From contig DASYJY010000035.1 of NCBI GenBank assembly GCA_035995985.1, forward strand, positions 378-64,377: a stretch of DNA of 64,000 nucleotides. The letters are read 5' to 3'. Position 1 is the first letter of the stretch, and the number at the start of each line of letters is the position of its first letter. This DNA comes from Thermoanaerobaculia bacterium (GTDB lineage Bacteria > Acidobacteriota > Thermoanaerobaculia > Gp7-AA8). A model generated the notes under the pieces. It ran no database searches and was not told where the DNA came from. It was given only the letters and a program-made list of their open reading frames with translations. The position numbers and the translations under genes are program-made. Shown here piece by piece: positions 4,449-42,060 of this stretch.

Positions 4449-4452
4449 ACGC

Positions 4453-12783: not shown

Positions 12784-12805
12784 GGTTTGCCTCGGAGTGG
12801 CCACT

Positions 12806-15729: not shown

Positions 15730-15797
15730 TCGTTTCAATCCTGGGTAGCCAGCATGAGTTATCTGCTGATCACTCTGACGGTAGCATTTCGTAAAGG

Positions 15798-16472
15798 TCA
15801 CTGGCCGAGCGGCACACGCGTCTTGACGTCGACGGGGAAGCCGACGTAGCCGATCTCGACCGATTCGATGCCGATGCTGCGCAGCACGAACTTGCCGTCG
15901 ATCGTTTCACCGACGCGTACGTTGACGATCTCGCCGTTGCCGTTGAACGTCGCGATCGGATTGTTGACCGGCCCGAAAGTGCCGATGTACTTCATCGTGA
16001 ATTGCGGCGGTTGGGGAACCTGTGGCTTAGGCGGATTGGCCGCGAGCCAAGCCGCGTAATCGGGATCGCACACGTCACCCTTGCCGTTTGCGTTGTCGTC
16101 TTTCTGGTCAGGGTTGTAGGTGGTCGGACAGTTATCCCGGAAGTCAGGGATGCCGTCGTTGTCCTTGTCGGGAGGAGGCGGCGCCGCTTTCGGTGGGGGC
16201 TCCGGCGGTTTTGGTGGTGGCTCAACGTAGCCGAAGAGATTCCGCGCACTCTTATAGCTGCCGCTCTGCGCGTCCAGCCATTCGGTATGCAGCATGGGAA
16301 CGCCGGGCGTGGCGACCGTTTTCGCAATGCGCGCCGGATGCGGCGATGTGGCCGGCCGCGCCGGCGCCGGATCGACGGTATTCGACGTCGAAGCGAACGA
16401 ATAGATCGCAAAGAGGGCGATCAGAATGACGCCGACGACGGTCCAGGTTTTCCAGTTCATCCAATCCATCAC
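15798..16472 (-). CDS. PilP-like inner-membrane pilus assembly protein with embedded thrombospondin-type-3-like Ca-binding repeat
   Basis: N-terminal TM helix, a Pro-rich linker, DKDNDGIPDFRDNCPTTYNPDQKDDNANGKGDVCD, and a C-terminal beta domain. Sits between the pilO and secretin genes. Confidence 0.5.
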   Translation of the reverse strand: MMDWMNWKTWTVVGVILIALFAIYSFASTSNTVDPAPARPATSPHPARIAKTVATPGVPMLHTEWLDAQSGSYKSARNLFGYVEPPPKPPEPPPKAAPPPPDKDNDGIPDFRDNCPTTYNPDQKDDNANGKGDVCDPDYAAWLAANPPKPQVPQPPQFTMKYIGTFGPVNNPIATFNGNGEIVNVRVGETIDGKFVLRSIGIESVEIGYVGFPVDVKTRVPLGQ

Positions 16473-17080
16473 AACTGCCGGTTCGCGGCTGGCGCGGTCG
16501 AGCGCACGTCCTTGAATAAGGTTTTGAGTCGAATATTGAGCGTCAGGACCTTGTCGGTTCCGTTCCCGTTCGCGCCGAGGCCGATGCTGTCGATGATCAC
16601 GAACTGATCGGACAATTCGAGCAGATTGATCAGCCGCCGGATTTCTTCATACGTTCCCTGAACAGTGAATGCAATGCCTACCGTAGTCGTGCCGATCGAT
16701 CCTTTTGTCGACGGTGCATTCGAGAGCTGTTTCGACTCGCCGGTCGTGAATGCGTATGCGGGCGGCTGCAGGTGGCTGGCAGCCGCGAGCCGTTTCACTT
16801 CATCGATCAGCGCGGTCAGACGCTGCATCGGCGTCGACCAGCGCTCGTTGTAGAGCACCTGCAGGTCAGTCTGCACTTTCTTGTAGGCGGCGAGCTGCTG
16901 TTCCGCCGTCATGCGCGCATTGCGCGCCTGATCGAGTTGGGCCTCGCTCTGTGTCTGACGCGCATCGAGGTCGTGCAAACGGCTGACGTACTGGACGCGG
17001 TACGTGAAGAAAAAGAGCGTGTTCGCCAGCAGCAGGAGGCCGAGGACGATCAGCAGGACGCGCTTCTCACGCCAGATCAT
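16469..17080 (-). CDS. PilO/GspM-like pilus assembly protein
   Basis: Single N-terminal TM helix, a coiled coil, and a C-terminal ferredoxin-like domain. 4-nt overlaps with both neighbours. Confidence 0.7.
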   Translation of the reverse strand: MIWREKRVLLIVLGLLLLANTLFFFTYRVQYVSRLHDLDARQTQSEAQLDQARNARMTAEQQLAAYKKVQTDLQVLYNERWSTPMQRLTALIDEVKRLAAASHLQPPAYAFTTGESKQLSNAPSTKGSIGTTTVGIAFTVQGTYEEIRRLINLLELSDQFVIIDSIGLGANGNGTDKVLTLNIRLKTLFKDVRSTAPAANRQL

Positions 17081-17658
17081 TCGACCCTCCGCGCGATCGA
17101 CGGACGATAGTCGACGCCGAGCGTGAAGTGATACTCCGTTCCGGTGCCGATCATCGTTTCCGACGTCGGGAAGGCGTTGGCGAAGTGCGGATCGCCGTTG
17201 AAGCGGTTGATCGTGGCGGTGAGACCTTCACCGGTCTTGGTGATGCATGTCATCGAGAGGTGCACCAGTCCGTCTTTGTCGAACGACGGCGCGACCGACT
17301 GGAGCCGCACGTCGGTCGGCAGCACTTTCTCGAGGCGGTCGAGCAACTCGCTCCAGGAGAAGGCACGCTCGGCGAGCTGCGCGTTGGCGAACTCGGTCTG
17401 CGAGGCCAGCTGCTTGAGATCGACGACGCGAAGGCGCTGCGCGAACGTTTCGGTGCGGCGCTGTTCGTCGGCGATCTGCAGTTCGAGTTTGGCGATGTTC
17501 GCGCGCGTCGTTTTCGTTTCCGTGCGGTAGCGCAGAAACGTGTCGACGTTATTGAGCGCGAGAAACGCCGTCAGCACAGCCATGATGACCACGGCCGCGT
17601 AGACGGGCCGGTAATCGCGGAACGGCCGCGCGGCAAGGTTGAGATGGATCGGCTTCAC
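17077..17658 (-). CDS. PilN-like pilus assembly protein
   Basis: GTG start giving VKPIHLNLAARPFR, then a TM helix and a coiled coil. The GTG overlaps the pilM stop (GTGA). Confidence 0.7.
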   Translation of the reverse strand: MKPIHLNLAARPFRDYRPVYAAVVIMAVLTAFLALNNVDTFLRYRTETKTTRANIAKLELQIADEQRRTETFAQRLRVVDLKQLASQTEFANAQLAERAFSWSELLDRLEKVLPTDVRLQSVAPSFDKDGLVHLSMTCITKTGEGLTATINRFNGDPHFANAFPTSETMIGTGTEYHFTLGVDYRPSIARRVE

Positions 17659-18545
17659 CCTGTGAATACTCCCGTGGCGGCGGTCAGCTCCGCTTCGTAT
17701 GCGCCGGCGTCGCCCGGCGACTGTTCGGCCACGTCGCGCAAGGAAATCTTGACGACTGGCGCCGAGAACTCGCTGCCGATCGTACCGGTCACCTCGCCAT
17801 TGATACCGTTGCCGACCACGTAGCATTTTTCAACCGACGTGGTCTGGAACGTGTCGCGAAGATACGTCGCGGAGAGCCGGATCTCCTGCTGGAGCGTCCG
17901 TTCGCCGTTGAGATTACGCGAGCGAATGAACAGCGGCTGCGCGCCGCGGAAGACGGCGGTGGTGAAGTCGTGATCGCGGATGTAGAAGAAGATGCGGTCG
18001 CGCGTGGTCGCGGCTTCGCGGGCGGTGATCGCGTTCCAGACGTTGAGGCCGGCCGGCTCGATGAGGATGACTTCGATTCCGGCGGCTTCGAACAAGCGTT
18101 CGATCGCGCTGATGGTGGCATTGACGGCGCTGACCGCGAGAATGCGCGGCGGCGTCCGGCTGAGCACTTCATACGACAGCCGCAGCTCCGTCGGATCGAC
18201 CGGCATGGTGCGGCGCAGGCTCCAGCGGATCACTTCCGCGGCTTCGCTGGCGCGCTCCGGCAAGGTCTGCAACTCGATGATGTTCATGCGGAACCAGGAG
18301 TCGGGCAGGAGCAGCGAGAGCTTGTCCCATCGTCCCGTTTCGAGCTTCATGCGCCGGATCGTTTCGGCCAGCAGCGCTTCGTTGCGCAGCTCGGGCGTGA
18401 CCACGCCGGCCGCGAAGACATCGTCGCGCAGCGGGTAACTCTTCGCCTGCAGGATCTGCATCTCTTTCCGTCCGCGGCCTACACGGGCGTGGACGAGAGA
18501 ATCGTTATCCAGTACGACGACGTCAGGTGGGAAAGAGCGCGCCAT
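17655..18545 (-). CDS. PilM-like actin-fold pilus assembly protein
   Basis: 296 aa with actin-like ATPase-fold segments. First gene of a pilMNOP-secretin block. Confidence 0.7.
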   Translation of the reverse strand: MARSFPPDVVVLDNDSLVHARVGRGRKEMQILQAKSYPLRDDVFAAGVVTPELRNEALLAETIRRMKLETGRWDKLSLLLPDSWFRMNIIELQTLPERASEAAEVIRWSLRRTMPVDPTELRLSYEVLSRTPPRILAVSAVNATISAIERLFEAAGIEVILIEPAGLNVWNAITAREAATTRDRIFFYIRDHDFTTAVFRGAQPLFIRSRNLNGERTLQQEIRLSATYLRDTFQTTSVEKCYVVGNGINGEVTGTIGSEFSAPVVKISLRDVAEQSPGDAGAYEAELTAATGVFTG

Positions 18546-18546
18546 A

Positions 18547-20172
18547 TCACTCCACGAAGGTGACCTTGTTGATCTCGCGCAACGTGGTCTGTCCGTTCAT
18601 CACTTTCCGGAGCGCCGATTCGCGGAGGAACAGCATTCCTTCTTCTTTCGCAGCTTTCTTGATTTCCGAGGCGGGACGGCGGTCGAGAATCATGGTTCGA
18701 ATACGGTCGGAAAGGTCGAGAAGTTCCGAGATTGCGGCGCGGCCGTGGAAGCCCGTTCCGTTGCAGTCGATGCAACCGGCGCCTTCCGCGAACTTCCTTC
18801 CGCGGAACTCCTTCGGATCGAGCCCCGACTCAATGATGAATGAGTCGGGATATTCGACCTCGTGGCGGCAGGAGTCGCAGATTTTGCGCACCAGCCGCTG
18901 CGCCAGGACGCAGTTGAGCGCCGAGACGAAGTTGTAGAGATCGACCTTCATGTTCAGGAAGCGGCCGAGAACGTCGACGACGTTGTTGGCGTGAACGGTG
19001 GTGAAGACGAGATGGCCGGTGAGCGCCGACTGCACGGCGATGGCGGCCGTCTCTTCGTCGCGGATCTCACCGACCATGACCTTGTCGGGATCGTGACGGA
19101 GGATGGCTCGCAGTCCGCGGGCGAACGTCAGCCCCTTTTTCTCGTTGACCGGAATCTGCGTGATTCCGCGGAGCTGGTACTCGACGGGATCTTCGATGGT
19201 GATGATCTTGTCTTCCGAGGTCTGAATCTCGGAAAGTGCGGCATAGAGCGTCGTCGTCTTGCCGGAGCCGGTCGGACCGGTGACGAGCACCATCCCGTAC
19301 GGCTCTTTGATGAACTTGCGGAACTTGAGCAGCATCTCCTCGTCGAAGCCGAGGACATCGAGGCGCAGGCTCTTGAAGTCGGAGTTCATCGACTCCTTGT
19401 CCAGGATGCGGATGACCGAGTCCTCGCCGTGCGCGGTCGGGACGATGGAGACACGGAAGTCGATGGTGCGGCCGGTGATGCGCAGCTTGAAACGGCCGTC
19501 CTGCGGTACGCGCTTCTCGGCGATGTCGAGCTCGGACATGACCTTGATGCGCGAAATGATGGTGCTGTGGTGGCGCTTGTCGATCGGTTCGAGCGCTTCG
19601 TAGAGCACGCCGTCGATGCGGTACTTGACGACCACTTCGTTGTCGCGCGTCTCGATGTGAATGTCCGAGGCGCGGCGCTGAATGGCATTGAAGACGATGG
19701 AGTCGACCAGCTTGATGATCGGCGACGACTCCTGCGCCGTGATCGAATCGATCGTCAGCGTCTCCTCGCCTTCCTCGTCTTCGCCGACGAGGGTCATGCG
19801 GAAACCTTCGGTCGCTTCGTCCAGGACCCGCTGCGTCGACTCGGACTTCTGCAGCTTGTCGCGGATGGCGGCCGCCGAGGCCACTTTGACTTTCAGCGGC
19901 GCACCGAGCAGGAGCTCGAGCTCATCGAGCTTGAGGACGTCGGTGGGATCGCCGACCACGACGGCGATGTGGCCGTTCTCGCGCTTCTCCGGGAGGAACT
20001 GATAGCGGATCATCAGCTCCAGCGGCACGTCTTTGAAGAGCTGGTGGTCGACCTGGAAGTGCTCGAGGTTGACGAACTCGAAGCCGTATTGCTCGGCCAG
20101 CCGTTGCGCACGCCCGGCTTCACCGGTGGGATCGGCGTTCTTGTAGAGGAGCGTGCGTGGATCGGCGGCCAT
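18547..20172 (-). CDS. gspE: type II secretion / type IV pilus assembly ATPase (GspE/PilB family)
   Basis: Walker A GPTGSGKTT, Asp box, Walker B, His box, tetracysteine CDSC...CIDCNGTG, and an N-terminal GSPII_E_N-like domain. Confidence 0.9.
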   Translation of the reverse strand: MAADPRTLLYKNADPTGEAGRAQRLAEQYGFEFVNLEHFQVDHQLFKDVPLELMIRYQFLPEKRENGHIAVVVGDPTDVLKLDELELLLGAPLKVKVASAAAIRDKLQKSESTQRVLDEATEGFRMTLVGEDEEGEETLTIDSITAQESSPIIKLVDSIVFNAIQRRASDIHIETRDNEVVVKYRIDGVLYEALEPIDKRHHSTIISRIKVMSELDIAEKRVPQDGRFKLRITGRTIDFRVSIVPTAHGEDSVIRILDKESMNSDFKSLRLDVLGFDEEMLLKFRKFIKEPYGMVLVTGPTGSGKTTTLYAALSEIQTSEDKIITIEDPVEYQLRGITQIPVNEKKGLTFARGLRAILRHDPDKVMVGEIRDEETAAIAVQSALTGHLVFTTVHANNVVDVLGRFLNMKVDLYNFVSALNCVLAQRLVRKICDSCRHEVEYPDSFIIESGLDPKEFRGRKFAEGAGCIDCNGTGFHGRAAISELLDLSDRIRTMILDRRPASEIKKAAKEEGMLFLRESALRKVMNGQTTLREINKVTFVE

Positions 20173-20181
20173 GACGGTCTC

Positions 20182-21387
20182 TTATTGCGCGACGTTGCTG
20201 AGCTGGAACAGTGGGAGATAGAAGGCGTAGAGCAGAATGGCGATGACGCTGCCCATGAAGACAAGGATCATCGGCTCGATGGCCGACACCATGCGCGTCA
20301 GGCGCGATTCGATTTCCTCGTCGTAGAACTCACTGACATTTCCGAGCATTTCCGTCAGCGCGCCGGTCGATTCGCCGACCTTGATCATCTCGACGGCGAG
20401 ATCGCTCATCGCGCCGGTGTTTTCGAGCGAGCGCCACAGCGGCTCCCCTTCGCGCACGTTCTGCACGATGCCGAAGATCTTCTTCGAAATGGAGTGGTTG
20501 GTGACGGACTGCGAGGCGATCTCGATCGCCGGAACCATCGGCGTACCGCCCGCGAGCAGCGTTCCGAGCGACTGCGTGAATTGCATGATGGCGAAGCGGT
20601 GCAGGATACCGCCGGCCAGCGGCAGGTTGAGCTTGAATTTGTCCCACGCTACCCGGCCGCTCCCTTTCGCCCATCGCCGGAAAAGGATGTATCCGCCGAC
20701 GAGAACGATGGCGAGGATGGGAAGGTTGGTATTCAGCGTCTTCGAAACGCCGATCATCAAGGTCGTGAACCAGGGCAATTCGGCGCCGAAACCTTGATAG
20801 AACTCGGCGAACTTGGGGATGACCTTGACCAGCATGATGAAGACCATGCCGATCGAGAGAAGGATCAGCACAGTCGGATAAATCATCGCGCCGATGACGC
20901 GCTTTCGCAGGTTGACGATGATCTTCTGGTAGCGAAGGAAGCGGCGTAGCACGCCTTCGAGGTCGCCGGAGCGCTCGCCCGCGCGAAGTGACGTGGAGTA
21001 GATCGGCGGAAAGGAGTCGCCGTACGCGGCAAAAGCGTCGGAGAGCGCGATCCCCGATTTCAGTTTCTCGCGCACGTCCGTCAGCACTTCCCTGAACCGC
21101 AGGTTTTTCTGCCGCTCGAGCATGATGTCGAACGACTGCAGAATCGGCAGTCCCGCTTTCACGAGCGCGAGCAGTTCCTGGTTGAACATCAGGAACATCT
21201 CGGTGGAGATGATTTTCTTGCCGCGCGGAAGAAGATCGCGCAGTTGCATCGCGCCGCGGCGCGCGTCGAAGACGTGCATCCCCTGCTGGCGCAGTTCGTC
21301 TTCAGCGGCGCGAACGCTCATCGCCTGGATGTGGCGTTCGGTGATGGCTCCGTCGGGCGTGCCGACTCTGACAATAAATTCTGGCAT
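20182..21387 (-). CDS. gspF: type II secretion system inner-membrane platform protein GspF/PilC
   Basis: 401 aa with a duplicated GspF domain and three TM segments. Confidence 0.9.
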   Translation of the reverse strand: MPEFIVRVGTPDGAITERHIQAMSVRAAEDELRQQGMHVFDARRGAMQLRDLLPRGKKIISTEMFLMFNQELLALVKAGLPILQSFDIMLERQKNLRFREVLTDVREKLKSGIALSDAFAAYGDSFPPIYSTSLRAGERSGDLEGVLRRFLRYQKIIVNLRKRVIGAMIYPTVLILLSIGMVFIMLVKVIPKFAEFYQGFGAELPWFTTLMIGVSKTLNTNLPILAIVLVGGYILFRRWAKGSGRVAWDKFKLNLPLAGGILHRFAIMQFTQSLGTLLAGGTPMVPAIEIASQSVTNHSISKKIFGIVQNVREGEPLWRSLENTGAMSDLAVEMIKVGESTGALTEMLGNVSEFYDEEIESRLTRMVSAIEPMILVFMGSVIAILLYAFYLPLFQLSNVAQ

Positions 21388-21585
21388 TGCGGTTCTGAGT
21401 CTGCCCTCTACGACGGTTGACGCCGTGAAACGTTCCGGACTCGGGCAGGGTGCTTACAACGGGGTGGGGCCGAAACGGATTCCGCGATTTCCTTGCGATT
21501 GCTGATGTTGCGGTGCCGCGATCGTGTGACCGCCATCACGCCAGCAGCCGAGTATGGCTCCGAACGTGAATGACCTCGGCAGACC

Positions 21586-23208: not shown

Positions 23209-23805
23209 CTACCGTTCAACCCATTTCTGCCCCTTACCGGCGTAGTAGAGCTTGCGGAGATTGCCGTCCGACCCCGACGAGCGTACCGCGGCGCCAAGGC
23301 TGCCGCCGTCGGTGAGGAAGATCGTCCCCGGAGTACCGGAGCCGATCTGCGAAAACGAACAGATCGAGGAGTTGTTGAACGCGATCGGCGAGGTGCCGGC
23401 CGTGAACGGCGCCAGCGTGTCGGGATCGGTGAAGCCGTTCCCGATCCCGACCTCGATCGGGGCCGTCGTGTTGAGAAGCGGGAACGGGCCTTCGATGCGC
23501 CGGTCCACGCCGCTGGCGATCTCGCTGCGCAGCACGCCATTGCCGTTCTCGTCGGTGTAGATCGCGTACATCCACTCGCCGTTCGTCTGGAAGTAGTAGA
23601 CGCCGCAGTTTTTCGAAAGCGCCGCCGCCGTGCTCTGCGCGCGCACCATTTGCCGGCGCAGCCGATCCGCGGCGGTCGCCAGCGCGAAGCGGCGGTGCAT
23701 GTTGTCGAGCGCCGGTGCTGCCGCCAGCAGCAGGCTGGCCATGATGGCCATACTCACAGCGCATTCGAGGAGCGTCATTCCCTTGGATGTTCTCTTCGGT
23801 TCCAT
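23209..23805 (-). CDS. GspH/FimT-like minor pseudopilin
   Basis: Prepilin leader MEPKRTSKG|MTLLECAVSMAIMASLLL with Glu+5, and a C-terminal beta domain. Confidence 0.7.
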   Translation of the reverse strand: MEPKRTSKGMTLLECAVSMAIMASLLLAAAPALDNMHRRFALATAADRLRRQMVRAQSTAAALSKNCGVYYFQTNGEWMYAIYTDENGNGVLRSEIASGVDRRIEGPFPLLNTTAPIEVGIGNGFTDPDTLAPFTAGTSPIAFNNSSICSFSQIGSGTPGTIFLTDGGSLGAAVRSSGSDGNLRKLYYAGKGQKWVER

Positions 23806-23968
23806 TGCTCTTCTCCTTTGTTCGGAGAAGGCCATTGCAAGAGAACGGAGGCAGACGCATTTTCAGCTAAGTTGCTGCGAGCAGACGAGTTATCAAACTC
23901 GATGAGGCGCGCCAGCCGTCAAAAAGATTGGCGGCGTCGCCGGTTTTTCACGCGGCGACGCCGTGCCG

Positions 23969-25081
23969 TTACGACGAACCGGAGGTGATGACGATCGACT
24001 CCTTCGAGTCGATGTGGCCGATGTAGCTGGCCAGAATCACCATGCGGGCGAGGATGCGCCGCGATCCGGCCGGCCCGACGATCAGAAACTCGAGGCCGGA
24101 GGGGAAGGTCGGCACATTGGAGTCGAAGACGGCGTATTTCGGAATGGGGTCTCGCACCTGGATCGAGCCGTCGGCCTTCTTGACATCCGTGTTCAGGTTG
24201 AAACGAGCTGCCGAGGGGCGGTAGCCGACGGTGTAATCCATCTTGCCGGAGATGCGTCCGCCGTTCAGCCCCTTCACCAGACTCGCCGACGTCGGCAGCG
24301 CGATGGTCGGGCTGTTGATGGCGGTGAACCCCATTGAGGCGCTGATCGTGTAGAACGCGGTCGGCGCCGCCACTCCCGAATTCCATGCTTTTGTCGTCGG
24401 CTGCGTCGCGCCAGTGACGGGATCCGTGTAGGTGCTCAACTGAGTGGCTACTTTCGTTTTATCGGTAGCGAGGGTGCCCGGCAGCGCGGCCCACTGCGTC
24501 AATTGCGAATAATCGGCGTAGATGTCGCTCTTCGCCTGGATCGCGTCCACGAAATAGTTCTGCCCCGCGAAGCCGTGAGTGAACCGCTGCGTCAGGTAGA
24601 AAACCTGAAACTGGTAACGGTCGACGAGCATCGTCCCCCCGGTTATGCTCAAGCCCGTTATGACCGCTGGCGAAAGTTGTTTGGCGACCAGCAGCACGTT
24701 GCCGGTGTAGCGAGTGGCTGGGTCATCGGGGACTAGTGAGGTGCTGGCCGGATTTAAGACCGGCATCTTCGAACCCGTCAGCAGCGGAAACGCGGCTGGA
24801 AATGTGAGGGCCGAGAAATAGCCGGGGCCGGTGCTGGCGGCGCTGCCTTCGAAGACAACTCGCGATTGCAACAACTCACGTTGAATGGCGTTGACCGCGC
24901 TCTGTCCGTAGATCGGAAGGTCGTTGTGCTCTTCCACGAAAAGGCTGGTCTGCACGCTGTCTTCGAGGAGCGTGTACGAGATAAAGAAAAGGACGGTAAA
25001 AAGAGCGACGACCACCATCATTTCCATCAGCGTGATGCCACGCTGGCCTCTCGGGCGGGATTTCATCTTCGTCATCATCAT
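23969..25081 (-). CDS. GspJ/PilW-like minor pseudopilin (enlarged, 370 aa)
   Basis: Leader KSRPRGQRG|ITLMEMMVVVALFTVLFFISY with Glu+5. 4-nt overlap with the upstream giant pseudopilin gene. Confidence 0.6.
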   Translation of the reverse strand: MMMTKMKSRPRGQRGITLMEMMVVVALFTVLFFISYTLLEDSVQTSLFVEEHNDLPIYGQSAVNAIQRELLQSRVVFEGSAASTGPGYFSALTFPAAFPLLTGSKMPVLNPASTSLVPDDPATRYTGNVLLVAKQLSPAVITGLSITGGTMLVDRYQFQVFYLTQRFTHGFAGQNYFVDAIQAKSDIYADYSQLTQWAALPGTLATDKTKVATQLSTYTDPVTGATQPTTKAWNSGVAAPTAFYTISASMGFTAINSPTIALPTSASLVKGLNGGRISGKMDYTVGYRPSAARFNLNTDVKKADGSIQVRDPIPKYAVFDSNVPTFPSGLEFLIVGPAGSRRILARMVILASYIGHIDSKESIVITSGSS

Positions 25082-28000
25082 GGTGATCTCTGTAAGAACG
25101 CGCGGTACTGGTGGAATGAGTAGTGTAACGGGTAACCCTCCCGGTAACCCTCTACGCGGATCAGATAGTTGCCTTGCGGAAAGGTCCCTGCCGGTGTATT
25201 GAAGGTCGTCGACGAGGTCGTGCTGGCCGCTGACACAGCCACGGAGATCTCGTGCGCCGGGTCCGGCTTCACGCCTGTATAGGCCACTGAGTTGTCCTGG
25301 ATGTATTTCCAGCCCGTGGGATTTCCATTTGCAGGATTCTTATCGGGAACGCCGTTACTCGGACTGTAGATCACGGCGTACTTCATCGTCAGCGTTTCCG
25401 TCCAGTTGGCGTACTGCGGGTCCGTCGTGTACGTGAGATCATCCCACCGTTTCCACGTCGTTTTCCACCCGACGGTGATGGAACTCTTATTTTTCAGATC
25501 GGTATTTTCATTCGGATCGGTGATGACCACGCGAGGCAACTGGCGTACATGCTTCGCTTTCGGACTGGCTGACGCATCGGTATAGAGGCCGCCATTCATG
25601 TAACTCTGAATCAATGTCAGGAACGACCATTTTGCGATGAAGGTCGTGCCGGCTACGCCGGTCGGTGAAAGACCATTGACGGCAATGAACGCGGGATTAT
25701 TACTGGCCGGATCGGTCAGAGCGAGGAGGGCGCTTCCCTGTGTCTCGCCACCTGGATGCGTGTAGTACGTATTCAGCACCCTGGCCACATACGCATTGGG
25801 ATAGGTGGCCGGCTCGAGGAAGTTCTCGGGGTTATAGCCGGTATTGTTGACATTGATGTCAAAAGGACGGGCGTTGTCGATCGTGTCCGGAACGGGCAGT
25901 GCGTAGTTGTCGGCGATGTCCTTTCCAGGGCCTGGGCTGGTGATATTGGCTTGATCGCCATCGTGATACGTGTGGTGGAACGTCGCGGCCGCATTGCCGC
26001 TCCAGAACAATGTCGTACTGCCCATCTCCTTCGTGCGGCGCACCGACGCGGTCAGGTTCGTGCCGTTGAACGGAGGGAACTTGGCGCGGTCATCGCGGAC
26101 GAACTTAGTTCCGCCGGTGCCGGTCGGGATATTGCCGTTGGCAAGCCAGGACGCGTAAGACGTATCCGGATAAAGCTCGCCCATCCACGGTTTCGCCCAC
26201 CAGACCGGCGGCGCGGCGTTGTCGCGGATGTATTTTACAGTCCCGGTAATGGAGTTCTCGTAAAGGCTGCCACCCGATCCGGTAAATGGCTTTGTAGACA
26301 CCGGAACACTGCTTGGAAATCCATTGGCTGAGTCATAGCCGATCTCGTTGCCGATGCCGATGTAGTAGTAGGAGAAGCCGGTCATCGTCGTCCAAATAGC
26401 ATTGGACCGCGTAAGTGAGGACCGCAGCATCTGGAAGAGCCGGTGTACGTCGATCTCGAGAGAACCCGCGCCGGTGTCCCACCCGGCATCGGCGAGATTG
26501 CCGTTGTTGTTGATACCGTACTGCTGCGCGCCTACGTTGTAAACCCAGCCGGGCCAGCCAGGCGTCCTCCCGATCGAATTATCGAACCCGAGCTCAGCAC
26601 CGCAATTGTTTGCGGCGGTTGTGTCGAATTGTACGGAACCCGGCCGTCCTTTCGTGGTGATCCGAACTCTGCCGCTGACAGCGTCAGCGTTCGCGACACC
26701 GGTAAACAAAACATTGGCCATGAGCTTCGCAACGACCTGTGCGGCGGTCATATCGACCGTCGACGCTGAAAGTGTTGTCGAAATTGCGAGCGCGACGCCA
26801 TCGATCTTTACAACAAACTTATTGTTCTGGCTACCACCGCTGGCCACGATGTGAAATGGCTCGACGTCCGCGCTCGTGATTTCGGCGGATCCTCCGCGAT
26901 TGCGGTTGGCATCCTCCATATCATCGAAATAGCGGTTGTAGCCCATGCCAAGCGGGCTCTCATACGCGCCAGCCGCAACGGCCGGCGGGCCAACGATCGC
27001 GCCGGCCGGAAATGCAGACGGACTAAAAACATTGGGCCGTTTCAGATCCGCATACGGGCAGTGACGCGGATCGCCGATCACCTGGAAGCGCTCCGTGATA
27101 GGCAACTTCGGCGGCGTCGCGGCGGTGCCATAGATGTAAGAATTAGGCCCGCACCATACAAAGGTGCGGCTCTTGTTCTCAGGGTCGACGGCGTTGGGAT
27201 AAAGATAGCCACTCGTTTCCTGGTCGCCAATACGCGTTTCCACGGAGAGAACCGCGCCCGTCGCCGGGATCGCTGCCGCGGGAATCTTGATGAGCCAACG
27301 CGCTGTGTTTTTCGGCCGTACGGCGGTGGATGTCAGGTCTGTAGAGAACTGAACTGCACCAGTCGTGAGATCTTCAACGGGCGATGGAATGTAATCGAGG
27401 CCGTAAAGCCGATCCTCGGGTGCCAGGCCGCGGCCACTCGTCTCCGTCGGAGTTCTCAGCGGTGAACCGTATAGCTTGAGGACGGTGTCGCCTGTGGCCG
27501 CGTCGATATTGTAGGTCCACGCCATCTGGTTCGGTTTCCCCACGACTGGGTAGGAAGCAGCGGCGACAGGAGCTGCGTCGTAAGCATCCGCGCCTCCCGA
27601 TCCGTCATTGTCGACCCCGCCGTGAATTGCCTGAACGTTGCAGGTGGTGCCAGCCGGAGGTGGAGCGACCGGCGTGCAGCCCGCGGGGTTGGCCGGAATC
27701 CACGAATTCAAACCGTTGATGCGGATCGTTAACGGTACGGGCATGATCGCCGGCGCCGAGACCGGATCGGTATATGTATAAACGCGCAGCGTCACCCAGT
27801 TGTTCGCGGCATAGGCCAATTGCTCGGGATGCGTGACGGCGCGAACGTTCTGCAGTCCGGCGGTTCCGGGACTCTTGGCCGCATCCGAGTAATTGCGCAC
27901 CGGCGGGAACGGCATCAGCTCACCGTGAAGATTGATGATCAGCGCGTTGGTGTAGTTCTGCGGATTCATGTACATGTCGTCCATGAGCAGACGCCATGTC

Positions 28001-29031
28001 ATCTCCTCGGTTTGCGGTGGATCCTGCTTCGCCGCTGCTTTCTTACGGGCGTCGTAAAGCGCCTTTTCGTCGTAATACCGCATGGCGTTGTTGTACTGAT
28101 CGGCGATCGCGTACGGTTGCGGATTGTCTTTGGCGTCGTAACCGTTCGTATCGACTCCGTCGACGCTCATCCGCCCACGGAAGAAGAACGACGGATAGTA
28201 ATAATCATCGCCGCAGTTACCGGCATTGATACAAGCCGTCGGCATCTTACCGGGATAGAAGTATACGGAGTTGATGTCCGCGTTGGAATCGGCCGCGTCA
28301 TTGATAAAAGGCTTGTAAAGCAGATCACGTCCGTAGGCGAGCGAGGTGATCCAGTGCGCACGGAAAATGAGCCCTGGATTTCGAGATTGCAAATCGCTGA
28401 TCGCGCTTTTGACAAACGGGACGACGTTCGACATGTAGACCCACCAACCCGGCACGTTTTCAATGGCGAGGCAGTAGACGTCGTACACCTGCGTCGGAGG
28501 CATATCCCCCGCCAGTGTGCGAATCACGCTGGATACCTCGGCGAGGAGGATTTGCCCGCCCCTCGGCAGGTTCTCAAAGACCTTTACGTTGACCAGACGA
28601 ACGTCGTTTCCCTGCCCTTTGATCTTACGGACTGTGATGAGACGCTCATACTGCCACTGGTCCGGCGCCACCATCAGAACATTGCCGCTCGTTACGTCGT
28701 CCGGAAGCGGCGGAGTCAGCGGCGCCTGGTTTTTTTCGCCGATCGTCGTGAGCACCATGTTGTTCTTCACGCCGTCATCGTAGTCGTCCAGCGTGACGAT
28801 CGTGCTGCCCGCATTCGTCTGCACGAGCGACTTGAGCTCTTCGATCATCGAGATCGCTTTTTCGGTCGCGAACTGTTTGCTCGATGTCAGGCGCGTGAGG
28901 TTATGTGCATTGCTCATCACGGTTACCGTTCCGAGCACCATCACGGAAATGATCGCGAAGCCGGCGATCACTTCGATAAGACTCATACCGGACTGCCGGC
29001 TACGCGTCGTCACTATCATTGTATTTCCCAT
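25078..29031 (-). CDS. giant (1317 aa) GspI/PilV-like pseudopilin with ~1250-aa C-terminal extension
   Basis: Class III signal peptide RSRQSG|MSLIEVIAGFAIISVMVLG (Gly-1, Glu+5). Lies between the gspK-like and gspJ-like genes. Single uninterrupted ORF. Confidence 0.7.
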   Translation of the reverse strand: MGNTMIVTTRSRQSGMSLIEVIAGFAIISVMVLGTVTVMSNAHNLTRLTSSKQFATEKAISMIEELKSLVQTNAGSTIVTLDDYDDGVKNNMVLTTIGEKNQAPLTPPLPDDVTSGNVLMVAPDQWQYERLITVRKIKGQGNDVRLVNVKVFENLPRGGQILLAEVSSVIRTLAGDMPPTQVYDVYCLAIENVPGWWVYMSNVVPFVKSAISDLQSRNPGLIFRAHWITSLAYGRDLLYKPFINDAADSNADINSVYFYPGKMPTACINAGNCGDDYYYPSFFFRGRMSVDGVDTNGYDAKDNPQPYAIADQYNNAMRYYDEKALYDARKKAAAKQDPPQTEEMTWRLLMDDMYMNPQNYTNALIINLHGELMPFPPVRNYSDAAKSPGTAGLQNVRAVTHPEQLAYAANNWVTLRVYTYTDPVSAPAIMPVPLTIRINGLNSWIPANPAGCTPVAPPPAGTTCNVQAIHGGVDNDGSGGADAYDAAPVAAASYPVVGKPNQMAWTYNIDAATGDTVLKLYGSPLRTPTETSGRGLAPEDRLYGLDYIPSPVEDLTTGAVQFSTDLTSTAVRPKNTARWLIKIPAAAIPATGAVLSVETRIGDQETSGYLYPNAVDPENKSRTFVWCGPNSYIYGTAATPPKLPITERFQVIGDPRHCPYADLKRPNVFSPSAFPAGAIVGPPAVAAGAYESPLGMGYNRYFDDMEDANRNRGGSAEITSADVEPFHIVASGGSQNNKFVVKIDGVALAISTTLSASTVDMTAAQVVAKLMANVLFTGVANADAVSGRVRITTKGRPGSVQFDTTAANNCGAELGFDNSIGRTPGWPGWVYNVGAQQYGINNNGNLADAGWDTGAGSLEIDVHRLFQMLRSSLTRSNAIWTTMTGFSYYYIGIGNEIGYDSANGFPSSVPVSTKPFTGSGGSLYENSITGTVKYIRDNAAPPVWWAKPWMGELYPDTSYASWLANGNIPTGTGGTKFVRDDRAKFPPFNGTNLTASVRRTKEMGSTTLFWSGNAAATFHHTYHDGDQANITSPGPGKDIADNYALPVPDTIDNARPFDINVNNTGYNPENFLEPATYPNAYVARVLNTYYTHPGGETQGSALLALTDPASNNPAFIAVNGLSPTGVAGTTFIAKWSFLTLIQSYMNGGLYTDASASPKAKHVRQLPRVVITDPNENTDLKNKSSITVGWKTTWKRWDDLTYTTDPQYANWTETLTMKYAVIYSPSNGVPDKNPANGNPTGWKYIQDNSVAYTGVKPDPAHEISVAVSAASTTSSTTFNTPAGTFPQGNYLIRVEGYREGYPLHYSFHQYRAFLQRSP

Positions 29032-29032
29032 G

Positions 29033-30235
29033 TCATTTCCCGACCCAATACTTGCTGCGGCTGAAACGGTACTGACCCATTTGTGAATTGATCTGGCCGA
29101 TGATGGCCGGGTCGTAGTCAGCCTCGGAAATGTCCGTACCGCTGTTGATCGCTACCGTGGCGCTGCTGGAGTTGTTCGCCGCGATGATGGCACCGCTCAC
29201 CTGCGTGACCTCGCTGATGACGAGGTTGCCCGTGCAATAGATGACGCCACTCCAATTGGAGTTCGATCCGACCGCGACCGTCAGATCGCCATACACGACC
29301 AGGATTCCGCTGCCAGTGAGTGGCCGCTTGTTATCAAACACGGCAGGGCCATTGATGATGATCAGGTTCATCGCCGGCAGCGGATTGGGAAGGTCAGTTA
29401 CCGTCGTCACATTAACGTCGGCAAGACCCTGCAACTCCTGAGGCGTCACTGCAAAGACCGCCTGGATGTCGTACGGCGCCGCGGAATTGGTCTTCGTAGG
29501 CGTGAGACCGCGGACCACTCCGTTATTTTTCATACCGAGACCGCCGCCCGGTCTGCACGAGACGCCGATCCCTGCACCGCCCTGGATTTTAGTTTTTGTA
29601 TCGATCGTGACGTTATCGCAATTCGCGCTGAAGAGGGCCGCGCCGCCGTCAGGAACATTGACGCTCATTTTCTGAATCTCAGTGCGAAAGGTCTGCTTTG
29701 AAAGAATCTGATTGGTGCTCTGATCGTAATTATCGTTGGCTGGATCGTTCTGCACCCACACGTATCCGATCGACTCCAACTGCCAGACGGAGCCCTGGGT
29801 CGCACTAGTGCGGCCTTTCTGGTTGGTAACGTCGACGACGCCAGCCCCGGCCACGCTGAACGGGAGGCTGCCTTTCCTGACTTCATACCGGGCCATCAGA
29901 CGTCCCGGACCGCTGACTTGATAGTTGCGGACGATCCCCATGTTGGGACTGTTGGTGTCCTCAGTCTCGTTGATCGGCGGATTCGCGGACGCGTCGATAA
30001 TGGGGTTGAACGTCTTGACGGGCTGTACCTTCTGCTTCCGGAACCATGACAGCGCATCGACCAAACCTGCCTGCGCGGCATTCGCGGCCTGTCCCTGATA
30101 GGTGAGTTGGCGGGAGACGAGACGGTTTCCGAGTTGAACCTGAGTCAACATCGTGAGAAGCGTCAGCAGAACGAGCGAGATGATGATCGTCGTCGCAAGG
30201 ACTGCTTGTCCTCTTTCTCTGTGGCGGTGCTTCAT
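29033..30235 (-). CDS. GspK-like minor pseudopilin
   Basis: N-terminus MKHRHRERGQAVLATTIIISLVLLTLLTML (GspK-type uncleaved hydrophobic start, no Glu+5), with a large periplasmic domain. Confidence 0.6.
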   Translation of the reverse strand: MKHRHRERGQAVLATTIIISLVLLTLLTMLTQVQLGNRLVSRQLTYQGQAANAAQAGLVDALSWFRKQKVQPVKTFNPIIDASANPPINETEDTNSPNMGIVRNYQVSGPGRLMARYEVRKGSLPFSVAGAGVVDVTNQKGRTSATQGSVWQLESIGYVWVQNDPANDNYDQSTNQILSKQTFRTEIQKMSVNVPDGGAALFSANCDNVTIDTKTKIQGGAGIGVSCRPGGGLGMKNNGVVRGLTPTKTNSAAPYDIQAVFAVTPQELQGLADVNVTTVTDLPNPLPAMNLIIINGPAVFDNKRPLTGSGILVVYGDLTVAVGSNSNWSGVIYCTGNLVISEVTQVSGAIIAANNSSSATVAINSGTDISEADYDPAIIGQINSQMGQYRFSRSKYWVGK

Positions 30236-30370
30236 TCGTCCTCCCGGCAGCATGGTGGGCTCCCTATGAGCAATGGCTGAGCCATGCGGTGCGTATCGCC
30301 TAAGCGATTGATGTACGGCCATTTAGCTATTTCCTAGGGCTTTCGAGGTCGAGAGCATCGCCGGATTCTG

Positions 30371-32071
30371 TTACAAAATGTAACGGCTGCGCAGCTGCTC
30401 CGACAGCACCTCGGCGGGCGACGTGCCGGTGGCGGACGGCTCATCGAACTCGATCTCGGCCACGGCTCCCCCTTCCGGGCGCGGCAGGAGTTGGATGGTG
30501 CCCTGGTGCAGAAGGATGATCTTTTTCGTCAGCGTCAGCCCGAGGCCGAAGCCGGCAGGCTTTCCTGATTGGAAGGGGACGAAGAGCCGAACGGCCGGAT
30601 CGAGACCCGCTCCGTCGTCTTCGACCGTGATGCGGCTCCGTGGATGCGCGCTCGTGCGGATGACGATGCGGCCCTCACCTCCCCGCGATTGAATCGATTC
30701 GACGGCGTTGCGAATGATGTTGTCGAGTGCGCGCGCCAGGAGCGCCGCGTCACCGCGCACGGAGAGCTTGTCGCCGCTGACGTCGAACGCGATGGCCGGC
30801 GCGAGTGGCGCGATCCGTTCGACGACATCGCGGACGAGCGCGGTCAGCGCGACATCATCGTGCCGGGCGGCGAGCGGCCGGCCGAGCGCGAGGAGACGTT
30901 CGACGGCGTCCGAAAGCGCGAGCGCCTCCTGTTCGGCCTTGCGCAGCCGCTCGTTGCTCGCTTCGTCCGCCGCGCCGAGGCGAGCCAGCCGGAGGTAGCC
31001 GAGAATCGCCGCGAGTGAATTTCGGAATTCGTGCGCAATGCCTCCTGACATTTCGCCCAGATCGGCAAGCGCCTGCATGTCGCGCACGCGCTGCTCGAGC
31101 TTGCGGACTTCGGTCAGGTCGGCGAACAGCGCGAGCATGCCGAGGTATCGGCCGTCCTGATCCATGAGCGGGACCGTCGAGACGCCGATGTGCACCGGTT
31201 CGGCGCCGCCGCTCGTCACCTCGCGGCGCTGCACGGCGATTCGCCGCTCGTGCGCCATCGCCAGCGTCCGTGCGAACGTCGATGTGCCGAGGGCCTGCTC
31301 GACGGTGCGGCCGGTGGCGGCGGCGCTGCCCGGCAGGTCGAGGATGTCGCAGGCGAACTGATTCAGATCGACGATCAGGCCGGCTTCGTCGAGGGCGATG
31401 AATCCGGAGGTGAGACTGCGCACGAGCGTGCCGGTCAGACGGGCCAATTCGTCGGCGCGTTCTTTCTCTTGCCGATGCATCCGTTTCAGCTCGTTCTCGC
31501 GCTGCTTCAGCGTTTCGAGAGAGCTGCCGAACGTGTGGAGAAGGTAGGCGGTGCCGCCCTCGTCGCCGGCCGTTCCGCGCTCCGCCGGCGCGCGGCCTCG
31601 AATCGCGTCATTGACGTAGACCGGCAGAAGAAGGATCGCGGCGATTCCGGCGATGACGCCGGCCACGAGCGCCAGCCGCACCGTCCGGGCGATGTGCTGC
31701 AACGCCTCTTCCGCGAAGTGAATGCGGACGACGGCCGGTCCGGCCGTCCGCGTTTCCACGTGCGACGGCGCGCCGGCCGGCGGGACGATGCCCAATCGCA
31801 CGACTGCACTACCCGACTGAATCTCGATGGCGTCCAGCCGGTATCGCTGCCGCAGGACATCGAGCGCGGCCAGGTCAGGGATGCCGCCTGCGAGCGTTGC
31901 CGCACACGCGTCGCTGATAGCCGCCTCGCGTTCGCGTTCGGATCGTTGCGCGACAATCCAGAGCGCCGGAACGGTGCTCGACAACACGACGGCGCCGGCG
32001 GCGAACAGCGCCAGCAGCATCGACGAGACGCCAAGCAACGACCTGCGCCGGGAAGCGGATCCGCTGGACAT
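30371..32071 (-). CDS. sensor histidine kinase with TM/PAS-like sensor, HisKA and HATPase_c domains
   Basis: H-box GGIAHEFRNSL, plus N, D and G boxes (IIRNAVES, DDGAGL, GFGLGL). Start taken at MSSGSASRRRSLLGV to avoid overlapping the peptidase gene. Confidence 0.8.
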   Translation of the reverse strand: MSSGSASRRRSLLGVSSMLLALFAAGAVVLSSTVPALWIVAQRSEREREAAISDACAATLAGGIPDLAALDVLRQRYRLDAIEIQSGSAVVRLGIVPPAGAPSHVETRTAGPAVVRIHFAEEALQHIARTVRLALVAGVIAGIAAILLLPVYVNDAIRGRAPAERGTAGDEGGTAYLLHTFGSSLETLKQRENELKRMHRQEKERADELARLTGTLVRSLTSGFIALDEAGLIVDLNQFACDILDLPGSAAATGRTVEQALGTSTFARTLAMAHERRIAVQRREVTSGGAEPVHIGVSTVPLMDQDGRYLGMLALFADLTEVRKLEQRVRDMQALADLGEMSGGIAHEFRNSLAAILGYLRLARLGAADEASNERLRKAEQEALALSDAVERLLALGRPLAARHDDVALTALVRDVVERIAPLAPAIAFDVSGDKLSVRGDAALLARALDNIIRNAVESIQSRGGEGRIVIRTSAHPRSRITVEDDGAGLDPAVRLFVPFQSGKPAGFGLGLTLTKKIILLHQGTIQLLPRPEGGAVAEIEFDEPSATGTSPAEVLSEQLRSRYIL

Positions 32072-32093
32072 TCCTGACAGGATAGCGCCGCGG

Positions 32094-32921
32094 TCAGCGC
32101 GGCACGAAGCTGAGATACCAGTCCGCCATCTCGTGACCGAAGAACAGAACGGCGAGAAAGCCGATGCCGAGGAAGACGCCGAACGGGAGCGCGGTCCGCA
32201 TCCCTTCGCCACTGCGAATCGCGAGCGGGATGCTGATCAACGATCCGGTCACCGAGGCGATCATGAGGACCGGGACGACGCTTCGCCATCCGGTGACGGC
32301 GCCGATCATCGCCAGCAGTTTGATGTCGCCCTGCCCCATCCCCTCGGCATGGCGCAAAAGCCAGTAGATGCCGATGATCGCCAGCGGAATGGCCGCGCCG
32401 AGGAACGCGCCGAAAAGGGAGTCGAGCAGCGAATCGGCCAGCATCAGCGATGGATGCAGGATGCCGAGGCCGAGCGCGCCGGCGCCGAGTCCGATGGCGA
32501 TGCCGGGGAGGTCGATGACGTCAGGAAGGATTTGGATATCGGCGTCGATGTAGATGAGGGCGATGGTGATCGAGATGATCGCCGCGACGATCACGAATGC
32601 GACTGTCGGCCCGGTGCGCTGATAGACAGCAAGATAAAAGAGCGCGTTCGCCAGCTCTACGAGCGGATAGCGCCAGGCGATGCCGGCTCCGCAGGCGCGG
32701 CAACGTCCGCGCAGCACGATGAAACTGAGGACGGGGATGTTGTCGTACCAGCGGATGGCCGCATCGCACTGCGGACAATGGCTGCCGGGAAAGACGATCG
32801 ACTCGTCGCGCGGATAGCGATGGATGACGACGTTGAGAAAGCTTCCGACGATCGCGCCGATGGCAAAGGCGTAGATGCCGAGCAGGAGCGTCATTGAGGC
32901 GGATTGTATTGGGAGTGTCAT
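32094..32921 (-). CDS. prepilin peptidase (A24 family; PilD/GspO)
   Basis: N-terminal CPQC...CRAC zinc-binding tetracysteine. Eight TM segments. Catalytic Asp region GQGDIKLLAMIGA. Confidence 0.9.
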   Translation of the reverse strand: MTLPIQSASMTLLLGIYAFAIGAIVGSFLNVVIHRYPRDESIVFPGSHCPQCDAAIRWYDNIPVLSFIVLRGRCRACGAGIAWRYPLVELANALFYLAVYQRTGPTVAFVIVAAIISITIALIYIDADIQILPDVIDLPGIAIGLGAGALGLGILHPSLMLADSLLDSLFGAFLGAAIPLAIIGIYWLLRHAEGMGQGDIKLLAMIGAVTGWRSVVPVLMIASVTGSLISIPLAIRSGEGMRTALPFGVFLGIGFLAVLFFGHEMADWYLSFVPR

Positions 32922-41929: not shown

Positions 41930-41992
41930 CAAAATTACCTCCAGTTGATTTGCGAGCGGGATTCTATGCACAAACCGCGCGAGACGGTTTTC

Positions 41993-42060
41993 ACGCGAAG
42001 CCGCGGGGACGCGGAGGTGAGTCCGCGTTTTTCTCCGCGCCTCCGCGTCTCCGCGTGAAA
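41993..42060. repeat. palindromic REP-like element (tcacgcgaagccgcggggacgcggag ... ctccgcgcctccgcgtctccgcgtga)
   Basis: Imperfect ~68-nt hairpin. Near-identical copy at 54788-54846 and a half-copy at 4453-4483. Confidence 0.6.

Follow-up and report, generated by a model that had tools for sequence, protein, structure and literature searches.

Can a protein of more than 1300 residues be a pilin, and what would such a protein do in the filament machine among whose genes it is encoded? The question is raised by an open reading frame in a 64,000-nucleotide stretch of Thermoanaerobaculia DNA (called the window below), which a sequence-only reading had described as a GspI/PilV-like pseudopilin of 1317 residues at 25078-29031. 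The coordinates and length were borne out, on the minus strand. We consider, with a probability of roughly two in three, that the product of the frame is a modular minor pilin belonging to a type IV filament machine, with a large head of its own in the priming or tip complex. The gene and the N-terminal parts of its product are listed here.

25078..29031, minus strand: putative giant modular minor pilin gene, 1317 amino acids plus stop (ORF list, translation, homologues)
28987..29031, minus strand: predicted leader peptide, residues 1-15 (MGNTMIVTTRSRQSG), from the sequence and the conservation of Gly-1 among homologues
28819..28986, minus strand: alpha1 helix, residues 16-71, from the AF2 helix (18-71), the invariance of E20 and N_methyl
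28507..28818, minus strand: pilin head, residues 72-175, modelled as a four-stranded antiparallel sheet of GspI-type fold

The frame opens with ATG and continues for 1317 codons without interruption. Its third-position GC content of 0.70 is that of typical coding sequence here (the window has 62% GC), and it is a real gene, far beyond a chance open frame. Alanine is the commonest residue (10.1%), standing above the five in which the protein had been called rich, all of which are indeed high: Thr (8.7%), Gly (8.3%), Pro (7.6%), Asn (7.1%) and Tyr (5.2%). Self-BLAST found no internal repeats.

The N-terminus consists of MGNTMIVTTRSRQSG followed by MSLIEVIAGFAIISVMVLG; position -1 is Gly, +1 is Met and +5 is Glu. 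Cleavage is predicted after Gly15, so that the mature part opens MSLIEV. A short basic leader (ending RSRQSG), the glycine, a hydrophobic residue at +1, the glutamate at +5 and a stretch of about 20 hydrophobic residues together make up a class III signal. The hydrophobic alpha1-N segment, which holds Glu+5 (E20), is followed by a conserved alpha1-C motif, KQFATEKAISMIEEL. Nearly all homologues retain Gly-1 and Glu+5 as well as the hydrophobic helix: E20 is invariant (97 of 97 aligned homologues), and the motif G/x[ST]xx[ED], where the slash marks the predicted cleavage site, occurs in 210 of 248 long family members. Of the other 38, many were annotated with their start at the +1 Met, and a few are cut short at the N-terminus or depart from the strict pattern. 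These counts uphold the class III signal that had been proposed from the single sequence.

The protein was modelled with AF2 in two overlapping pieces (residues 1-1170 and 860-1317). In the pilin module the model shows a helix from 18 to 71 and four strands between 119 and 171 (pLDDT 75-89), with an extended alpha1 of about 50 residues packing on the antiparallel beta-sheet. Among 48,164 PDB chains compared with this module, the GspI orthologues XcpV, GspI and EpsI took ranks 1, 8 and 13, in keeping with the GspI-like character claimed for the N-terminal part; Foldseek against the PDB gave no match at E <= 1e-3. The module behind the signal is thus, in the models, of GspI-type fold. The family profiles weigh on the other side, with N_methyl just under its gathering score and the T2SSI and PilV models far under their cut-offs. 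Pfam PF07963 (N_methyl) scores 19.6 bits against a gathering score of 21.2, and matches 33 of 40 diverse homologues with a best E of 2.8e-08. PF02501 (T2SSI) gives no Pfam match to the protein of the window and matches 2 of the 40 homologues (E 0.003), while TIGR02523 (PilV) reaches a weak 19.9 bits, where the cut-off is 52.2; that T2SSI and PilV are the models touched at all speaks in favour of the pilin reading.

A word-indexed search returned 605 homologues, and an exhaustive HMMER search 722 representatives at 50% identity, almost all of which align over the profile from position 1-5 through to its last position; full-length members have 1000-1660 amino acids. The phylogenetic spread, which had been proposed for checking, covers at least 220 species genomes in Acidobacteriota (mostly Thermoanaerobaculia) and Planctomycetota. 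Literature searches found no description of the family or of giant or large minor pilins, nor of the giant family in work on pilins in Thermoanaerobaculia, Acidobacteriota or Planctomycetota. The sequence-only reading had allowed for two pitfalls, an assembly fusion of two genes and a generic Sec signal in place of a pilin leader; both were checked, and neither applies. A fusion is ruled out by the same end-to-end architecture in hundreds of independent assemblies, and a Sec signal by the retention of Gly-1 and Glu+5, the helix unbroken to residue 71 and the GspI-type sheet after it. The idea of an artefact, whether two genes joined by an assembly or sequencing error or a Sec-signal protein mis-read as a pilin, has nothing in its favour but the protein's uncommon length and an N_methyl score under the threshold, and can for practical purposes be dismissed.

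Beyond the pilin module the models show four to five further folded domains. The protein thus has the make-up of a modular pilin in the sense of Raynaud et al. 2021, where a pilin module at the N-terminus precedes one or more folded modules that are not specific to pilus biogenesis.

27712..28491, minus strand: extension domain A, residues 181-440, alpha/beta, the most conserved part
26920..27711, minus strand: extension domain B, residues 441-704, beta-rich
26557..26919, minus strand: lineage-specific insert, residues 705-825, a small alpha/beta domain
25552..26556, minus strand: extension domain C, residues 826-1160, mixed alpha/beta, conserved, of no recognisable family
25081..25533, minus strand: C-terminal FN3/Ig-like beta-sandwich, residues 1167-1317

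An extension beyond the pilin module had been predicted correctly, but because that module runs to about residue 175 it comprises about 1140 residues and not the ~1250 proposed. The modelled head, about 125 kDa in mass, is compact, and a pTM of 0.80 suggests that its domains are packed in a fixed arrangement. Domain A, which contains the motifs ENVPGWW, ADQYNNAMRY, NLHGE and VTHPE, is probably a ThuA/GATase1-like domain, of the class I glutamine-amidotransferase-like (GIFT-type) kind whose flavodoxin-like alpha/beta fold takes up about 200 residues; it has no sequence-level match to such domains and no evident Cys-His-Glu triad. Domain B carries a family-wide motif, GDPRHCPYADLK (residues 653-664), and an EF-hand-like D-x-D-G-x-G-x-x-D-x-Y loop (474-484) specific to the Thermoanaerobaculia clade, whose D-x-D-G-x-G-x-x-D part recalls the calcium site of PilY1. 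The insert is confined to the clade of ~1300-residue proteins. Searches of the extension turned up no lectin domain, no beta-helix and no domain known from adhesins. Of the folds earlier named for checking (beta-helix, lectin, Ig), an FN3/Ig-like one appears, at the C-terminus. Pfam and NCBIfam searches with the whole protein, 40 diverse homologues and single sub-domains returned only N_methyl and weak T2SSI, PilV, BNR and Big_7 matches, and phmmer and profile hmmsearch found no relatives in the PDB, only chance matches to UGI (E ~0.5).

The conservation profile shows strong purifying selection on the extension as a whole, with domain A more conserved than the pilin head. Polar and aromatic residues highly conserved across the two phyla include R235, D311, N314, R318, R379, D383, R397, H401, E647, D654, R656, Y660, D662, D861, R870 and E952. 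Such conservation is unlike that of typical variable adhesin tips; the profile rules out a fast-evolving adhesin and counts against a head of the usual adhesin kind. A role as an adhesin or substrate-recognition module is putative.

The head might instead be a displayed enzyme or a bindosome-like protein, for which the class III signal and pilin module would mainly provide anchorage and export of a catalytic or substrate-capturing unit, with no part in priming or adhesion. It would then resemble archaeal sugar-binding proteins with class III signals. Polar and aromatic residues so highly conserved in both phyla would suit this, and ThuA/GATase1-like and FN3-like domains are common in carbohydrate-active enzymes. 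However, no catalytic family was matched at the sequence level in Pfam, NCBIfam or the PDB, GATase1-type domains in GH42 enzymes and in IFT52 are not known to be catalytic, and we know of no demonstrated catalytic role for ThuA-like proteins. Because the K-I-J synteny set out below is tight, it argues for a structural member of the minor-pilin complex; although peptidase modules are among those described for modular pilins (PMC8179133), we regard a displayed enzyme as improbable.

Three further genes for putative minor pilins accompany the giant gene.

29033..30322, minus strand: upstream partner, PilX/GspK-like, 429 amino acids, probable start at Met30 (position 30235)
23969..25081, minus strand: downstream partner in the J/W-like slot, a 370-residue prepilin-type protein (QRG/ITLME)
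23209..23835, minus strand: H/U-like slot, a 208-residue prepilin-type protein (SKG/MTLLE)

The flanking by K-like and J-like genes with junctions of 1-4 nt was described accurately: the TGA of the K-like gene is followed by 1 nt and then the giant ATG, and the giant stop overlaps the J-like ATG by 4 nt (ATGA). Judged by these junctions, the giant gene is translationally coupled to both neighbours. The placement of the gene as in H-I-J-K blocks was inaccurate, since gspI canonically stands between H and J, whereas the local order is K-like, I-like, J-like, H-like. The N-terminus of the K-like protein (...HRERG/QAVLATT) has no Glu at +5, nor have any of 17 aligned orthologues; a prepilin without Glu5 is a hallmark of GspK/PilX (PMC7541494). 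The K-like family comprises 312 co-distributed proteins, 3 of the 120 listed bearing the JGI name PilX, and the protein of the window had no match in Pfam or NCBIfam. The J-like protein matches Pfam N_methyl (26.6 bits), TIGR02532 and, weakly and N-terminally, GspJ, and its G15 and E20 are invariant in 16 orthologues; the H-like protein matches N_methyl (23.2 bits) and TIGR02532. The K and J identities stay positional because PDB profile searches gave only a weak match of the C-terminal part of the K-like protein to an ice-binding-type beta-solenoid and, for the J-like protein, N-terminal pilin-helix matches; both are putative assignments from N-terminal features, size and position.

The order K-like, giant, J-like recurs in Acidobacteriota and Planctomycetota, with the K-like gene upstream in at least 49 and the J-like gene present in at least 38 of 61 loci. 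The four-gene cassette also stands alone, far from any machinery (loci L001 and L004), and at least one MAG has two copies (L047 and L054, same assembly). GGDEF genes are associated with cassette loci.

In the window, the remaining parts of a filament machine lie on either side of the minor-pilin genes.

32094..32921, minus strand: prepilin peptidase (A24), PF06750 E 2.8e-36, PF01478 E 1.2e-14
30371..32212, minus strand: PAS sensor histidine kinase, directly upstream of the minor-pilin genes and in the same place in locus L003
13300..21387, minus strand: assembly machinery block
20182-21387, minus strand: GspF/PilC
18547-20172, minus strand: GspE/PilB
13300-15801, minus strand: secretin
within 13300..21387, minus strand: three small proteins in the PilM/N/O or GspL/M slots
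within 13300..21387, minus strand: TSP3-repeat protein in the PilP/GspC slot
11724..13300, minus strand: two GspG/PilA-like pilins of 164 and 247 amino acids, candidate major subunits

The gene content is that of a complete type IV filament cluster. No cluster ORF has a PilY1 domain, in agreement with the earlier view that the cluster has no separate PilY1-type protein, and a PilY1 homologue in the giant pilin itself was rejected, as the C-terminal PilY1 beta-propeller (PF05567) is not matched. The ORF at 21454-22200 on the minus strand is spurious, lying antisense to a real REC-GGDEF gene.

Whether the filament reaches the surface bears on the place of the head. Because the machinery scores lean to the T2SS and no PilT was found within 64 kb, it may never leave the periplasm. 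If the cluster is a T2SS, the giant GspI would stay periplasmic, and its head would be a piston face that recognises or pushes exoproteins, or would plug or gate the secretin, and would be no surface adhesin. The NCBIfam models score slightly better for T2SS than for T4P (GspD 170.6 against PilQ 114.2 bits, GspF 298.6 against PilC 264.5), which counts against the main reading; there are weak matches to GspM, delta-type GspC and GspG, the window holds a single ATPase, and the nearest fold matches of the pilin module are T2SS GspI proteins. All those scores are, however, under curated cut-offs, and GspE (539 bits) and PilB (534 bits) are practically equal. The lone cassettes and the two-copy MAG recall T4P minor-pilin/PilY1 sets, and the FN3/Ig-like C-terminal domain and associated GGDEF genes fit surface biology. 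We consider a purely periplasmic pseudopilus unlikely, at somewhat better odds than the displayed enzyme.

In the preferred reading, that of a modular minor pilin, the hydrophobic alpha1-N helix would insert the protein into the inner membrane and the cluster's own A24 peptidase would cut after Gly15. The GspI-fold module (residues 16-175) would join the J/W-like (370 aa), Glu5-less K/X-like (429 aa) and H/U-like (208 aa) proteins. On the GspF/PilC platform these four minor pilins would make up a priming complex, and polymerisation of the major pilin would start from it. We infer complex formation from fold, neighbours and established models. As the priming complex starts polymerisation, it would end up at the filament tip, and the covalent ~1140-residue head, with four conserved domains and the clade-specific insert, would ride on it. 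There the head may bind a conserved external or periplasmic ligand, or act in catalysis, roles that elsewhere fall to a separate PilY1/PilC or a grafted vWA or lectin module. In favour of this reading are the class III signal kept across the family, the coupling to both neighbours, the recurrent gene order, the missing Glu5 of the K-like partner and the strong conservation of the head. The cluster also contains the peptidase, the ATPase, the platform, the secretin and candidates for the major pilin, and pilins onto which functional modules are grafted form an established class (PMC8179133). Carriage of a protein of >100 kDa through a secretin by the priming/tip complex is documented for PilY1 (PMC7541494). 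A compact head of the modelled size may be hard to pass through the secretin.

Several known systems are close. GspI/XcpV/EpsI of the T2SS and their T4aP counterpart PilV have about 120-190 residues and no extra domain, and are encoded in the order H-I-J-K or U-V-W-X, whereas the giant pilin is about ten times larger, has a multi-domain C-terminal extension, lies in the order K-I-J-H and does not reach the T2SSI and TIGR02523 models. The four-gene Verru_Chthon prepilin cassette (TIGR02596 and relatives) likewise contains several prepilin-type proteins, one of them very large; the J-like and H-like proteins show weak N-terminal matches to its protein D, and the giant pilin had no match to the cassette models at E <= 0.1. 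Modular pilins (PilB with vWA and PilC with lectin in S. sanguinis, CofB of ETEC, ComZ of Thermus; PMC8179133) likewise use a pilin module as carrier of a grafted module expected at the tip. The giant head is far larger (the largest modular pilin quoted in the InterPro survey has 860 residues; PMC8179133) and without database signature, and its carrier is GspI-type and conserved across two environmental diderm phyla. PilY1/PilC of T4aP (PMC7541494) similarly exceeds 1000 residues, belongs to a minor-pilin operon, combines a conserved core with variable insertions and is proposed to sit on the priming/tip complex.

It is a tentative thought that Acidobacteriota and Planctomycetota share a distinct tip architecture, in which the conserved ~125-kDa head of a GspI/PilV subunit, a new combination of domains, would replace PilY1 and would be a ligand-capturing or catalytic device (for a conserved polymer, for example) and not a generic adhesin, perhaps coupled to c-di-GMP through the histidine kinase and REC-GGDEF protein.

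Type IV filaments gain their specific functions largely from what is placed at the tip. In the proposed view tip subunit and large functional head are one polypeptide, and genetics and localisation would therefore be simpler, with one gene and one tag-free antigen. Experiments could become possible in Acidobacteria bacterium Mor1 (CP011806.1, locus L041), a cassette carrier whose record has no MAG label, if a culture is available. Many modules of modular pilins are predicted to lack signatures (PMC8179133), and with the giant protein the modular-pilin idea would come to include a case that is much larger, has many domains and is built on GspI. Its head is a conserved block of ~1000 residues without family annotation in two phyla abundant in soil, sediment and water, and is therefore a clear target for structural and functional work and for a new family model.

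The giant pilin, a 1317-residue GspI-type protein, is encoded by an uninterrupted ORF with an ATG start and a third-position GC of 0.70; 1 nt separates this ATG from the stop of the upstream K-like (GspK/PilX-like) gene, and its own stop overlaps the ATG of the next gene downstream (ATGA). The N-terminus reads MGNTMIVTTRSRQSG/MSLIEVIAGFAIISVMVLG (slashes separate positions -1 and +1), a basic leader with a final Gly, followed by Met at +1, Glu at +5 and a hydrophobic stretch. Glu+5 (residue E20) does not vary across 97 aligned homologues, in which M16 and L18 reach at least 90% conservation; in a more divergent set (n = 40), G15 and E20 also reach at least 90%. The strict motif G/x[ST]xx[ED] is present in 210 of 248 long family members; of the remainder, many have gene calls starting at the +1 Met, and a few are N-truncated or divergent. 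The Pfam N_methyl model scores 19.6 bits for the window protein, marginally below the threshold of 21.2, and is matched in 33 of 40 diverse homologues. The class III signal proposed in the sequence-only reading, with Gly at -1 and Glu at +5, is conserved across the homologues, and the enrichment in Thr, Gly, Pro, Asn and Tyr described there is borne out by the composition. Ala is the commonest residue. No internal repeats were found in the protein.

A word-indexed search returned 605 homologues. Among the matches listed (120 of 605), almost all are 1100–1550 aa long and most come from Thermoanaerobaculia MAGs; their sources use no name more specific than 'PulG', 'PilV' or 'prepilin-type', and PF07963 is the sole precomputed Pfam domain on record for them. 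An exhaustive profile search covering 1.84 billion representatives gave 722 clusters at E ≤ 1e-3, of which 410 reach E ≤ 1e-30. Nearly all matches align from profile position 1–5 onwards, so that the extension and the pilin N-terminus are always found joined. With each species represented by a single genome, a scan detected a homologue in 220 genomes. The carriers listed (80 of 220) are Acidobacteriota, mostly Thermoanaerobaculia together with a single record under the label Terriglobia and 'Acidobacteria bacterium Mor1', a record that is not a MAG, and Planctomycetota, including Brocadiia, Phycisphaerales and Planctomycetia. The earlier reading had allowed for the ORF being an assembly fusion of two genes; such an origin is excluded, since end-to-end homologues share the architecture across a large family in many genomes of two phyla.

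The gene lies in a filament cluster, listed here along the minus strand in order of falling coordinates.

Filament cluster in the window
32094-32921, minus: A24 prepilin peptidase
30371-32212, minus: PAS histidine kinase
29033-30322, minus: K-like protein, 429 aa (RG/QAVLATT, no Glu5)
25078..29031, minus: giant pilin, 1317 aa
minus: J-like (GspJ/PilW-like) prepilin-type protein, 370 aa (QRG/ITLME)
minus: H-like (GspH/U-like) prepilin-type protein, 208 aa (SKG/MTLLE)
22610-23131, minus: Sec-signal protein, 173 aa
minus: GspF/PilC, then GspE/PilB
minus: three small proteins in PilM/N/O or GspL/M slots, one with a weak GspM match
15798-16472, minus: TSP3-repeat protein in the PilP/GspC slot
13300-15801, minus: TPR-secretin
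minus: two GspG/PilA-like pilins

The placement of the giant gene between the K-like and J-like genes, as first described, stands; the order, however, is K-I-J-H and not the canonical H-I-J-K assumed there. The ORFs at 21454-22200 (-), antisense to a REC-GGDEF gene, and 23919-24386 (-), in another frame within the J-like gene, are probably spurious. The second GspG-like pilin (247 aa, 11724-12467, -) has Gly for Glu at +5 (ESG/FTLAG), and its N-terminal leader region is long, provided the annotated start is right. Occupying the PilP/GspC slot is a protein that combines a thrombospondin type-3 (calcium-binding) repeat with a Pro-rich linker and weakly matches delta-proteobacterial GspC. Weak, sub-threshold Pfam matches to TPR (17.7 bits versus 27) and STN (16.5 versus 28.4) precede the Secretin_N and Secretin domains of the secretin, which scores higher for GspD than for PilQ, both under cut-off. 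In the flanks (2016-6855 and 39863-44897) lie, among others, genes for a phosphodiesterase/TPR protein, for two peptidases (an S9 prolyl oligopeptidase and an S46 enzyme) and for a fusion of a Ser/Thr kinase with PD40 beta-propeller repeats; they fit a proteolytic soil Acidobacteriota lifestyle and are unrelated to the giant pilin.

The whole-locus order is repeated around a 1546-aa homologue in another genome (locus L003), with a counterpart of the PilP/GspC-slot protein at 18838-19503. Elsewhere (loci L001 and L004) a stand-alone cassette runs K-like, giant, J-like and ends with one or two small genes, for an H-like prepilin or the Sec-signal protein. The latter (161–183 aa, conserved DSPLVRAAK motif) accompanies the minor-pilin cassette in the window, L003 (13087-13638) and L004 (15473-15958), and has no Pfam or NCBIfam match. 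Of the 61 loci in which the giant ORF is complete, a K-like ORF of 380–500 aa ends at the giant ORF start in at least 49, and an ORF of 330–390 aa lies directly downstream in at least 38, 29 of these with a prepilin motif; the arrangement is seen in both phyla. The K-like family (312 proteins) is co-distributed with the giant pilin and lacks Glu5 throughout, a hallmark of GspK/PilX (PMC7541494); the homologues listed are mostly 'hypothetical', with 'PilX' three times. The K-like and J-like identities are putative, being only positional and N-terminal. The C-terminal half of the K-like protein has a repetitive G-x-G-I-x-V-V-x-G-N-L...NG-x-I-Y-V-x-G-N region, weakly matching the beta-solenoid of an ice-binding protein (7dc5, E 0.022) and recalling that of Thermus ComZ.

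The filament may be either a periplasmic, T2SS-like pseudopilus or an extracellular surface pilus. The former is favoured by T2SS models scoring slightly above T4P models, although all scores are below cut-offs, and by the absence of PilT from the 64-kb window; the occurrence of cassettes on their own, the presence of several cassettes in one genome, the FN3-like domains and the adjoining GGDEF genes all fit surface pili. In mid-cluster, the other strand carries a gene for a REC-GGDEF diguanylate cyclase (21586-22680, +), and in L001/L002 another GGDEF gene (15260-16414, -) comes after the stand-alone cassette. As the PAS histidine kinase has no adjoining response regulator, it may pair with the REC-GGDEF protein of the window, tying the filament to c-di-GMP.

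A short low-confidence linker (residues 176–179) precedes the extension, whose domain boundaries, like the placement of the ThuA-like and flagellin-outer-domain-like matches, are inferred from secondary structure rather than residue-level superpositions, the structure being given as two separate, uncombined models.

Regions of the head
441-704: beta-rich, bearing the family-wide motif GDPRHCPYADLK
705-825: well-folded insert limited to the ~1300-aa clade
826-1160: alpha/beta, conserved

None of these three regions has a sequence-level match in Pfam, NCBIfam or PDB, and Foldseek gave no match against PDB at E ≤ 1e-3. The residues of the segment DNDGSGGADAYD (residues 474–485; window 27577-27612, -) are spaced as in an EF-hand-like calcium loop. 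The loop is conserved in the Thermoanaerobaculia clade, where 83 of 97 sequences keep D474, 69 keep D476, 85 keep D482 and 94 keep Y484, but not in Planctomycetota homologues.

The giant pilin would work like a GspI/PilV protein fused to a PilY1-sized head, but it lies outside the GspI/PilV sequence families, as it does not reach their models and is ten-fold larger; nor is it a PilY1, since no propeller is detectable. It falls within the definition of modular pilins, for which an InterPro survey gives 860 residues as the most extreme case and predicts signature-less modules in many (PMC8179133). We found neither a description of the family in the searchable literature nor a dedicated Pfam or NCBIfam model; it is such a signature-less case, larger, multi-domain and conserved over two phyla.

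The best-supported model is that the giant pilin acts as a modular minor pilin, in line with the models established for GspK-I-J and for PilVWX/PilY1 (PMC7541494) and with the concept of modular pilins (PMC8179133). After processing by the prepilin peptidase of the cluster, its GspI-type module would take it into a priming complex that also contains the J-like, K-like and H-like proteins; this complex would nucleate polymerisation and stay at the filament tip, displaying the ~1140-residue head there. The conservation profile places the head under strong purifying selection, and many Arg, Asp, His and Tyr residues in it are invariant in the divergent set (n = 40), which argues for a head that would serve a specific conserved ligand or activity rather than a variable adhesin.
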